A stretch of DNA of 4,169 nt from a virus. Its lineage: Duplodnaviria; Heunggongvirae; Uroviricota; Caudoviricetes. This document shows positions 1,252 through 2,701 of this stretch, one piece after another. The notes under the pieces are model-generated. The model was not told the origin of the DNA. It did no database searches and was given only the letters and a program-made list of their open reading frames with translations. The stretch is from IMG/VR virus record IMGVR_UViG_2531839368_000014, one strand, 5' to 3'. Numbering within the stretch: the first letter of the stretch is position 1; every line of letters starts with the position of its first letter. The translations under genes were made by a program, and so were the position numbers.

Positions 1252-1388
1252 TGTTTGAGTCTTATATGGCAGAACGTCTTCGCCACCGCTGGATGCGCCT
1301 GCGCTTATATCGTTTTCCTGGTTCTGTTTTGACCGATTACCGGATACTGAAGAATTACGCCAAAACACTGAAAGGAGCTGCCGCATGA
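1248..1388 (+). CDS. ylcG: YlcG-like small protein (46 aa)
   Basis: Tandem ATG at 1248 and 1251 overlapping the rusA stop; stop TGA 1386..1388 overlaps the next ATG. Translation [46 protein letters not shown] resembles DLP12 YlcG and occupies the same slot between rusA and the Q-position gene. Start could be 1251. Confidence 0.65.
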
Positions 1389-2074
1389 ATACCCAATATT
1401 TACAGTATGTCCGCGAGCAACTCATTGTGGCTACCGCTGATTTGAGCGGAGCAACGAAAGGACAGCTTGAAGCCTGGCTGGAGCATGCACAATTTGATAC
1501 TGGTACATACAAACGAAAGAAGCCGCGCATTCTGGATGAGGTAACTGGCAGGATGATTACGCTGGATAATCCGCCGATTTCCGGTAAGCAGTCGTACGCA
1601 AAAGGTTCATCCATTGCACTGGTCAGCCAGGTTGAGTTCTCAACCTCGTCATGGCGCCGCGCGGTTCTGTCTCTCGAAGAACATCAGAAAGCGTGGTTGC
1701 TGTGGAGTTACAGCGAAAGTGTTCGCTGGGAACATCAGGTCACCATAACGCAGTGGGCATGGAGCGAGTTTAAGACTCTGTTGGGTACCAGGAAAATTGC
1801 AGGTAAGACACTGGAACGTTTGAAGAAGTTGATCTGGCTGGCGGCACAGGATGTGAAGAACGAGCTGGCAGGGCGTAAGACCTATGAATACCAGGAGCTG
1901 GCATCACTGGTGGGAGTGACATCAAAAAACTGGTCTGAGACATTTACTGAACGCTGGGTTGCAATGAAACACATTTTTCTACAGCTTGATAGCCAAGCTT
2001 TATTGCTTTTAACGAAAACACGTTCAAAACAAAAGACCACATTTTCACAGCAAGATATTGCAAAACTGGATTAA
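1385..2074 (+). CDS. putative late-gene antiterminator in the Q position (229 aa), not lambda-Q type
   Basis: Last gene of the nin-region chain, followed by a promoter/terminator intergenic region and then the lysis cassette, the canonical Q position. AGGAG at 1373..1377 seven nt upstream of ATG 1385. The protein has no cysteine, so it cannot carry a lambda-Q-like zinc ribbon; a helix-turn-helix-like stretch lies near residues 170-190 (YQELASLVGVTSKNWSETF). Assignment is positional. Confidence 0.5.
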   Translation: MNTQYLQYVREQLIVATADLSGATKGQLEAWLEHAQFDTGTYKRKKPRILDEVTGRMITLDNPPISGKQSYAKGSSIALVSQVEFSTSSWRRAVLSLEEHQKAWLLWSYSESVRWEHQVTITQWAWSEFKTLLGTRKIAGKTLERLKKLIWLAAQDVKNELAGRKTYEYQELASLVGVTSKNWSETFTERWVAMKHIFLQLDSQALLLLTKTRSKQKTTFSQQDIAKLD

Positions 2075-2086
2075 AAATCATATATT
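2058..2086 (+). promoter_or_regulatory. candidate sigma70 late promoter (PR'-like): TTGCAA - 17 nt - TATATT
   Basis: -35 TTGCAA at 2058..2063 and -10 TATATT at 2081..2086 with 17-nt spacing, straddling the Q stop codon (2072..2074), where PR' and the qut site lie in lambdoid phages. Hexamer match only; no expression data. Confidence 0.35.
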
Positions 2087-2142
2087 TTATGTAAATCTGA
2101 TATTTTGCCAATGTTGTACGCACTGGCAGTAATCCAAATTCA

Positions 2143-2176
2143 AGCCCGAGGTTTAAAGCCTTGGGCTTTTCTGTTT
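2143..2176 (+). terminator. intrinsic terminator-like hairpin (9-bp stem, 7-nt loop) followed by a T-rich tract
   Basis: AGCCCGAGG (2143..2151) pairs with CCTTGGGCT (2159..2167) with one G-U pair, loop TTTAAAG, then TTTTCTGTTTCT. Lies roughly 50 nt downstream of the candidate promoter. Confidence 0.45.
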
Positions 2177-2255
2177 CTGAACGGTGAGTAGCCTTCCAAC
2201 CTACCCCAGCCAGGGGGTCTTCAGCTGTTGAGTTGATATTGCTTAGCCCTCTGTT

Positions 2256-2278
2256 GCCAGCTACATGCTGGCTTTTTT
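2256..2278 (+). terminator. intrinsic terminator (tR'-like): GCCAGC-TACAT-GCTGGC followed by TTTTTT
   Basis: Perfect 6-bp GC-rich stem (2256..2261 with 2267..2272), 5-nt loop, then six T at 2273..2278. Located between the Q-position gene and the holin, as tR' is in lambda. Confidence 0.6.
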
Positions 2279-2395
2279 ATTCCAGGCTTGTGGGGAGCAT
2301 CAACTCCGTGCTTTGTCGTTAAATTACCCCGTGAGCCTGATTTCTGACATTTAACGTCCCGGCCTTTTGTCGGCGGCGAAACATTGGCTATTCAT

Positions 2396-2701
2396 ATGCA
2401 CGAAAAAGAGAGCCTTGCCGGAGCGTTCTGGCTCGTTTTGCTGATCATCGCAGGTTGGGGCGGTCTGGTCCGCTACCTGATAGATGTGAAGCAGAGTAAA
2501 GCAACGTGGAGTTGGATAAATGCTCTGGCTCAAATAGTGGTATCAGGATTCACCGGTGTTATTGGTGGCCTGATCAGCATCGAAAGTGGATTCAGTATTT
2601 ACATGATTCTCGCGACAGCGGGGATTAGTGGTGCGATGGGTTCGGTTGCACTGACGTACTTCTGGGAACGACTGACAGGGGTGAAAAATGCAAAATCTTA
2701 A
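2396..2701 (+). CDS. putative holin (three predicted transmembrane segments, about 101 aa), not lambda S-like
   Basis: Small hydrophobic protein with three hydrophobic stretches (AFWLVLLIIAGWGGLV; INALAQIVVSGFTGVIGGLISI; IYMILATAGISGAMGSVAL) and a short charged C-terminus, directly upstream of the endolysin and overlapping it by 14 nt. First ATG is at 2396; the track start at 2384 is an in-frame TTG four codons upstream. Sequence is unrelated to lambda S as I recall it. Confidence 0.6.
   Translation: MHEKESLAGAFWLVLLIIAGWGGLVRYLIDVKQSKATWSWINALAQIVVSGFTGVIGGLISIESGFSIYMILATAGISGAMGSVALTYFWERLTGVKNAKS

Follow-up and report, generated by a model that had tools for sequence, protein, structure and literature searches.

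What fills the gap between the antiterminator gene Q and the holin gene of a lambda-like prophage, and how much of it belongs to Q rather than to the lysis genes that follow? The question is raised by a stretch of 4,169 nucleotides (nt) of the tailed-phage record IMGVR_UViG_2531839368_000014 (Caudoviricetes), referred to here as the window, in which a Q gene for a protein of 229 amino acids is followed by a long interval without any recognisable gene and then by the first lysis gene. The segment 1385-2700 of the window, which spans this gap, is identical to prophage Sp8 of Escherichia coli O157:H7 Sakai, a prophage that adjoins icd. An original prediction, made from the sequence letters, had described the gap as a late-promoter region in which a sigma70 promoter match is followed by two tandem terminators that act in series, with a spacer of no obvious function between them, and from which a short RNA analogous to lambda 6S would be made unless the antiterminator acts. 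The reading preferred here is that the gap is a lambda-like late-gene control region composed of two separable modules, the first of which (module A, 2058-2176) is tied to Q and the second (module B, about 2199-2340) to the lysis cassette, and we give the full mechanism outlined below a probability of about 0.7. The overall finding is ordinary late-control anatomy. What it adds is that the supposed spacer has structure and that the second terminator is part of a pre-lysis module which is conserved and recombines.

What ties the first half of the gap to Q? Q is a protein of the phage 82 family, with relatives of 59-76% identity in 27 genomes from other genera. These 27 loci of other Enterobacteriaceae genera formed the comparison set for module A; 29 distinct Q82-family loci were examined, and the alignment of module A holds 24 distinct Q82-family loci from about 15 genera. 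The layout just 3' of Q is the same in each distinct locus, namely a -35 element TTGC with its -10 element, a near-invariant block (T)AAATCTGATAT, a stem-loop, and a G+C-rich hairpin with a U tail, such that promoter, initial transcribed block, stem-loop and terminator are all found at 29/29 loci. The promoter overlaps the last codons of Q, and the stop codon TAA (2072-2074) falls inside the promoter spacer. Its consensus match is 9/12, in a window that contains 5 promoter-like sites as compared with 4.7 +/- 2.1 after shuffling, while across the 24 aligned loci the TTGC of the -35 element, most of the -10 element and the block that follows are invariant or nearly so. It is this conservation, not the score of the single site, that supports the assignment of a putative late promoter. 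The same promoter precedes IsrJ in Gifsy-1 and is also found downstream of the Q82-like gene of phage 434. The arrangement is that of a Q82-type unit, with a PF06323 Q directly upstream and a conserved sigma70 promoter at its end.

Where would transcription from this promoter begin, and what would happen to the polymerase shortly afterwards? Within the alignment the columns G42, A43, T44, A45 and T49 are invariant and T46 is conserved in at least 90% of loci, which corresponds to window positions 2099-2102 for the first four, 2106 for T49 and 2103 for T46. Of these, T44, A45 and T49 fall in a -10-like hexamer TATNNT (2101-2106), as its first, second and sixth letters. The native pause at pR' of phage 82 occurs at +25 (PMC4914094). 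With +1 placed at 2093 the hexamer TATTTT would lie at +9 to +14, which would fit a sigma70-dependent pause near 2117; by analogy with phage 82, the block 2093-2106 would act as a sigma70-dependent pause element and Q-loading region, and the start near 2093 that had been proposed would agree with the +25 pause.

The RNA that this promoter would produce has a known relative. The Rfam model isrJ (RF01393) matches 2090-2169 over its full length, with 30.4 bits and E = 0.008, and the same model is found at the same position in Gifsy-1 (L002) and in loci L009, L014, L021, L025, L028 and L031 with 45.2-100.3 bits, and in L018 with 29.6 bits. Because seven orthologous positions score 45-100 bits, the window copy and L018 are stem-1 variants of the IsrJ family. 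Stem-loop 1 exists in two sequence variants among the loci, and because these misalign RNAalifold recovered only the terminator from the MAFFT alignment of module A, so that stem 1 was taken from the Rfam model. The segment 2090-2176 has a fold energy of -27.6 kcal/mol (z = -3.65, RNAfold), and folding of the region, a check that had been suggested with the original prediction, recovered both terminator hairpins. Within the helix of terminator 1, both sides change at 4 of 9 pairs with pairing kept across the 24 loci. Both terminators consist of a G+C-rich hairpin with a U tract, both helices covary, and they are the top two terminator-like sites of the window (9 sites against 4.5 +/- 2.2 expected for 4169 nt on both strands). 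The transcripts predicted from 2093 would end at position 2176 (84 nt) or at position 2278 (186 nt).

The position of the founding member is informative as to what IsrJ is, since the window copy has the same genomic position and the same promoter. In Gifsy-1 isrJ is preceded by ATTGCAAAACTGGATTAA, a relic of the last codons of the Q82 C-terminus, together with the same -35 and -10 elements, and because of this IsrJ is, as judged from its sequence context, what a late unit of the phage-82 type makes between pR' and tR'. It was described as a 74-nt Salmonella RNA on the basis of northern blotting and primer extension, and a plasmid copy is expressed from the promoter of isrJ itself (PMC2330248). 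Short pR' RNAs have also been reported for lambda, 21, phi80, 82 and P22, with StxS as a functional example (PMC7547250). Module A is of a known kind, a phage 82-type late unit with an IsrJ-family RNA that lies just under the Rfam cut-off. The promoter match overlapping the Q stop, the two hairpin-plus-T-tract terminators and a Q-type late region giving a short RNA of the lambda 6S sort had all been predicted, and all are borne out or are as expected. The promoter and terminator part adds nothing new, except that isrJ represents the pR'-tR' RNA of phage-82-type Q modules across many genera.

Does the second terminator belong to the same unit as the first? The original prediction had treated the two as one, but terminator 1 goes with Q and terminator 2 with a lysis-cassette module that is found alongside other types of Q. 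In other genera the stretch 2177-2255 reappears in company with terminator 2 and its downstream sequence. A 23-mer of the module B consensus is present without mismatch in at least 120 viral contigs, and a blastn search with the module B region returned 61 phage records, from phages of Klebsiella, Salmonella, Enterobacter, Escherichia and Citrobacter. The context of module B was counted over 122 copies, which lie directly after a transfer RNA (tRNA) gene in 70 cases and after another T-run in 15, and in which terminator 2 is followed by a leader of the window type (type A) in 60 copies and by a type B leader in 51. In most copies the first open reading frame begins 83-109 nt downstream, and this first reading frame is a holin of family PF05106, PF04971, PF16083 or PF16931; nearly all 122 copies precede a holin gene, of at least four Pfam families in total, by about 85-110 nt. 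Module B accompanies a P22-like Q in UPF_BP1 and a Qin-like Q in mEp237, both of which have a separate tR'-like terminator further upstream. With the window mEp237 shares only 2270-2340, and in it the junction between leader A and an inserted gene with a terminator of its own falls precisely at the T tract. In many E. coli genomes the shared sequence is confined to 1385 to about 2107-2118, where homology to the Q module stops and where the Q-specific unit would be expected to end, and others share only the sequence from 2219, 2351 or 2365 onward. A block on lysis-gene expression tighter than that of the single tR' of lambda, as had been proposed, is plausible. A pre-lysis terminator is common in lambdoid phages and not special to this one, and tandem terminators downstream of lambda pR' were reportedly described in the 1980s.

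What, then, is contained in the spacer between the terminators? The earlier statement that 2177-2255 has no open reading frame stands, but the view that it has no obvious function does not, as it holds a conserved, covarying hairpin (2204-2252). A covariance model (R1) built from 44 copies, with the window copy excluded, finds 2199-2280 with 58.6 bits (E = 1.1e-15), where the next-best match in the window has 8.4 bits, and also picks up divergent copies in loci L155, L006 and L026. Pairing of the inner hairpin 2221-2236 and of terminator 2 is kept by compensatory changes over 46 aligned distinct copies, with 92.5% of cells paired as against 85.8% after shuffling (0 of 500 shuffles reach the observed value) and 22-40% with slid partners. 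Terminator 2 itself exists as three allelic stems (GCCAGC, CCCGGC and CCUGGC), with 3 of the 6 pairs changing on both sides and 98.2% of cells paired. The unpaired stretch GACAUUGCCUUACCCUCA is more conserved than the structure demands. Searches of Rfam with module B from the window and from eight related loci gave no match to any family, as did a literature search with the conserved module B sequence, and module B is not catalogued as a conserved RNA element.

The G run of module B can pair either with an upstream C run or with a downstream CCCUC, and the alignment is compatible with both. Such a choice would be expected of a cis-acting switch, either an attenuator or a leader responsive to a ligand or protein, in which GGG (2213-2217) alternates between CCCC (2204-2207) and CCCUC (2247-2251) and thereby tunes terminator 2 or translation of the holin. 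The two pairings are mutually exclusive and both fit the alignment: one pair of the local helix occurs as A-U, U-A or C-G, and one subfamily has a perfect long-range helix. However, neither visibly competes with the terminator stem, the invariance of the GGG and CCC runs means that covariation cannot choose between them, and no similarity to a riboswitch is found in Rfam; a switch is decidedly improbable.

The layout originally described was also incomplete in that it missed a conserved RNA stem (2283-2339) after terminator 2. The arms of this long stem are complementary in all 40 distinct type-A copies, with compensatory changes such as CAGGUU/AACCUG and CAGGG/CCCUG, and the stem appears in each of the nine minimum free energy folds inspected, with 12-14 long-range pairs. 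Pairing was assessed by per-sequence folding, and a column-wise pair count was dropped because of shifts in alignment register. Could the inverted repeats of the gap, and especially 2283-2295 with 2327-2339, instead be sites in the DNA for a dimeric regulator? Symmetric changes would preserve a DNA palindrome as well, and the energies of the two strands are close (mean -24.0 versus -23.1 kcal/mol, the + strand being more stable in 26/40 copies). The arms, however, are about 31 nt apart, bulges are present, and the window copy has three consecutive G-U/U-G pairs. Moreover, the changes between C and U opposite a constant G give G-U pairs on the + strand but an A-C mismatch on the other strand or in a palindrome, and they point to the long stem acting as + strand RNA. 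Regulator sites within the gap are extremely improbable, and for the long stem the palindrome reading was ruled out on this G-U evidence. The type B leader (CAGGCCGCAGACA...TGTCTGACGGCC) forms an analogous long stem.

The proximity of module B to tRNA genes suggests a further possibility, that 2199-2278 is a trans-acting regulatory small RNA, processed from read-through or antiterminated transcripts in the manner of a tRNA 3' trailer, with the unpaired stretch as its seed and the terminator as its Hfq-binding 3' end. The 70 of 122 copies that follow a tRNA start within a few nt of its 3' end, the conservation of GACAUUGCCUUACCCUCA exceeds structural need, a hairpin with a terminator and U6 is a typical small-RNA 3' module, and the late-leader RNAs StxS and IsrJ can act in trans. 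Yet there is no evident promoter upstream of module B, neither Rfam nor the literature search gave a match, there is no defined target, and in the window copy about 5 positions of the proposed seed depart from the consensus. A Hfq-crosslinking table for Sakai, which is weakly informative in that it lists above-threshold peaks, has no orphan peak in Sp8 or at about 1,626,425-1,626,610, and an abundant Hfq-bound RNA from the locus is not evident under the conditions of Hfq crosslinking. A trans-acting role is on balance unlikely.

In relatives of the window tRNAs begin about 10 nt after tR', and because this leaves no room for a promoter these tRNAs would form part of the late transcript. The window has about 22 nt between the end of tR' and module B, where most relatives have tRNAs or genes, and a search for tRNA genes within the gap found none. 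Does module B remain here only as a relic, with its hairpin and terminator being the 3' end left behind, without present function, after deletion of a tRNA or accessory cassette that had separated tR' from the lysis genes? The short spacing would suit this view, as would the O157 relative, a prophage that some strains carry in degraded form. The helices of the window copy, on the other hand, are all kept by compensatory changes (A-U for G-C, and G-U pairs) with no decay. Moreover, of 5426 complete E. coli genomes about 790 retain at least 80% of a 361-nt query around the gap, mostly with at least 99% identity; phage PhiR47_2 is 99.2% identical to the same 361 nt. A functionless relic is quite unlikely.

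How would the two modules operate together? Under the preferred reading, a Q-linked module A followed by a lysis-linked module B, a constitutive sigma70 promoter overlapping the end of Q would start transcription at about 2090-2093, and TATTTT within the first 15 nt would hold RNA polymerase in a pause near +25, on the model of phage 82, for the loading of Q. Without Q the polymerase would stop at terminator 1, giving an IsrJ-type RNA of about 80 nt, whereas polymerase modified by Q would pass both terminators. Terminator 2 would act as a second barrier or insulator, halting ahead of the holin any polymerase without Q modification, whether this had leaked past tR' or had started in inserted DNA, and the stable flanking hairpins would shape the ends of the resulting RNAs. 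In most relatives tR' and the lysis genes are separated by a segment of phage tRNAs or accessory genes, which module B would close off, and excision of the tRNA would leave the conserved hairpin at the new 5' end. The module B hairpin and the long stem may also protect or process the lysis messenger RNA. Of this scheme the sequence comparisons establish the elements and how they are conserved, covary and are distributed as modules, while the start site, the pausing, the strength of termination and the role as insulator are inferred.

Several points weigh against this scheme. The pR' match taken alone is at chance level, and both the pause element and the start site are carried over from phage 82 through the logic of the alignment. 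Terminator 2 is a predicted terminator with a stem of 6 bp. The window copy of the short RNA, at 30.4 bits, misses the RF01393 gathering cut-off of 37 bits, and the Hfq table of Sakai is without a peak for the locus, with the limit already given. Finally, the space between the terminators holds neither a tRNA nor an accessory gene in this prophage, so that an insulating role may be vestigial here.

Table 1. Features of the Q-holin region in window coordinates.
Feature	Position	Strand	Basis and details
Antiterminator Q gene, phage 82 family	1385..2074	+	Pfam PF06323 Phage_antiter_Q, E = 1.4e-94, 217/220 profile positions
Putative late promoter pR'	2058..2086	+	-35 TTGCAA 2058-2063, 17-nt spacer, -10 TATATT 2081-2086; consensus scan and conservation
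Predicted short pR'-tR' transcript, divergent IsrJ member	2090..2176	+	Predicted start 2090-2093, end in U tract 2169-2176
Conserved initial transcribed block	2093..2106	+	AAATCTGATATTTT, with -10-like hexamer TATTTT 2101-2106; 24-locus alignment
Stem-loop 1 of short RNA	2105..2129	+	RNAfold; first helix of the Rfam isrJ model
Terminator 1 (tR')	2142..2176	+	12-bp stem 2142-2168, 6 G-C pairs; U-rich tail 2169-2176, TTCTGTTT
Conserved pre-lysis RNA element	2199..2280	+	5' or long-range helix (2204-2217 or 2211-2252), inner hairpin 2221-2236, unpaired 2237-2255, terminator 2
Terminator 2	2256..2278	+	6-bp stem GCCAGC/GCUGGC 2256-2272, 5 G-C pairs; U6 2273-2278
Long-stem leader, type A	2283..2339	+	13 bp, 2283-2295 with 2327-2339; per-sequence folding
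Holin (LydA type), first lysis gene	2384..2701	+	Pfam PF16083, E = 8e-22; alternative start ATG 2396

How do these modules compare with systems that are already known? Phage 82 has a Q of the same Pfam family, a promoter that overlaps the Q stop, an early -10-like hexamer and an intrinsic terminator within about 85 nt, and its last Q codons are near-identical to those of the window (97% over 35 nt, record X92588), but the Q protein and the terminator differ in sequence. Phage 434, with its Q82-like gene, has its own different and shorter leader that lacks stem-loop 1. IsrJ of Gifsy-1 shares with the window copy the promoter, the identical first 14 nt (UGUAAAUCUGAUAU), and the length and layout of two helices plus terminator; the window copy, in contrast, has another stem-1 sequence that keeps it below the cut-off, and in Gifsy-1 an isrK-orf45-anrP module is inserted between Q and the unit. 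The part that IsrJ is reported to play in invasion, and its dependence on HilA (PMC2330248), cannot be carried over to E. coli. Lambda 6S and StxS resemble the predicted transcript as short RNAs made from a constitutive late promoter and ended by a terminator that Q overrides, and StxS demonstrates that such late-promoter RNAs can be Hfq-bound regulators (PMC7547250). There is, however, no sequence relation, the Q proteins of lambda and of Stx phages are of other families, and lambda 6S is 194 nt.

Module B finds its parallels elsewhere. Moron terminators and tRNA 3' trailers such as 3'ETS-leuZ are comparable in that module B also lies at the 3' end of an inserted tRNA or accessory segment, includes an intrinsic terminator and often follows directly after a tRNA CCA. 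It differs from them in that its hairpin stays conserved where the upstream genes differ, and in being linked to conserved leaders of holin genes; it is not known to have any processing or sponge activity. The late leader of lambda, with its RNase III sites (Daniels et al. 1988, cited in PMC7547250), is likewise part of a late transcript in which a long, imperfect stem precedes the lysis genes, although the stem here is of only 12-14 bp with a bulge and has no sequence similarity, and the likeness is a lead only.

A possible, if tentative, extension is that the hairpin-terminator-long-stem of 2199-2339 constitutes an undescribed RNA family that is widespread among the lambdoid phages of enterobacteria and has its own function. 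It might be a regulatory RNA processed in the manner of a tRNA trailer, or it might act as a leader and, whatever the type of Q or holin, set the basal leakiness of lysis-gene expression, the stability of the mRNA or the timing of that expression. If module B does control the basal leakage of lysis genes, or gives a stable RNA in lysogens, then this would bear on prophage stability and on the insulation of inserted genes, such as tRNAs and toxins, from the lysis genes. The Rfam cut-off misses a stem variant that is common in E. coli, including the O157 prophage Sp8 and the ST131 strain JJ1886, and in many lambdoid phages the lysis cassette brings with it a conserved terminator and a structured leader that recombine together, separately from Q.

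The window as a whole has the gene order ninB, ninE, ybcO, rusA, ylcG, Q, the gap, a LydA-type holin, lysozyme and Rz/Rz1, with bor on the opposite strand. The gap is 309 bp, as first stated, when the holin is started at TTG 2384, and 321 bp with the ATG at 2396 that is called in RefSeq. Its lack of coding capacity had also been predicted, and between 2075 and 2383 there is no + strand open reading frame of 30 amino acids or more; small coding frames were considered and rejected, as the only frames present are of 24-29 amino acids and the indels and compensatory changes in relatives speak against coding. Two mechanical minus-strand reading frames overlap the end of Q and the end of the holin. 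The first 80 or so nt of the window diverge from Sakai Sp8, the remainder being near-identical (63 mismatches in 3668 nt, with the 20 that are listed all within the first 21 nt). Because the mismatches cluster at the start of the window, the record is either an Sp8-like prophage from another strain or has a mosaic joint inside ninB.

The promoter region has features on its other strand as well. The best sigma70-like match of the window, TTGGCA-16-TAAAAT (10/12), is on the minus strand at 2111-2084 and faces the 3' end of Q, and a TTGC-N6-TTGC motif of the CII-box form is found on the minus strand at 2050-2063, the position equivalent to that at which the phage 434 record has an annotated CII site and the -35 of paQ. 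These minus-strand hexamers are weaker in most related loci and may be a by-product of an A+T-rich promoter.

Other small RNAs were considered as identities for the locus. AgvB, AsxR, Esr41 and STnc100 were rejected, with no Rfam match in the window at E up to 10. PasA/PasC, which were promising from their position just upstream of holins, lie in E2348/69 on the strand opposite to the holin and are unrelated in sequence. In the IsrK region of Gifsy-1 (L002) the segments 1685-1883 and 2501-2615 match the Rfam models c4-a1b1 (48.1 bits) and C4 antisense RNA (69 bits), such that isrK-orf45-anrP looks like a P1-type c4/icd/ant immunity module, and it appears to be inserted between antQ and the relic Q82 C-terminus with the 82-type pR' that would drive IsrJ. 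The sequence GCCGGAGATCAGCACCGGCCACCA, which ends in CCA, is found in 24 module B copies (L034 and about 24 other viral loci) at 20-60 nt upstream of the hairpin, and may be a degenerate tRNA 3' end.

Lastly, the start of the holin gene has a structure of its own. Two in-frame starts lie four codons apart, TTG 2384 (M-A-I-H) and ATG 2396, where relatives read M-A-K-R-M; such dual starts are the pattern of holin/antiholin pairs, and public records differ on which start is used. In relatives the Shine-Dalgarno sequence of the holin is taken up in a small hairpin (CACCCCG-loop-CGGAGGUG) shortly before the start codon; its loop varies, and changes in its stem are compensatory. The equivalent hairpin in the window (about 2354-2377) is GUCCCGGCC-UUUUG-UCGGCGGC. 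This arrangement recalls the structure that sets the choice of start codon in lambda S.

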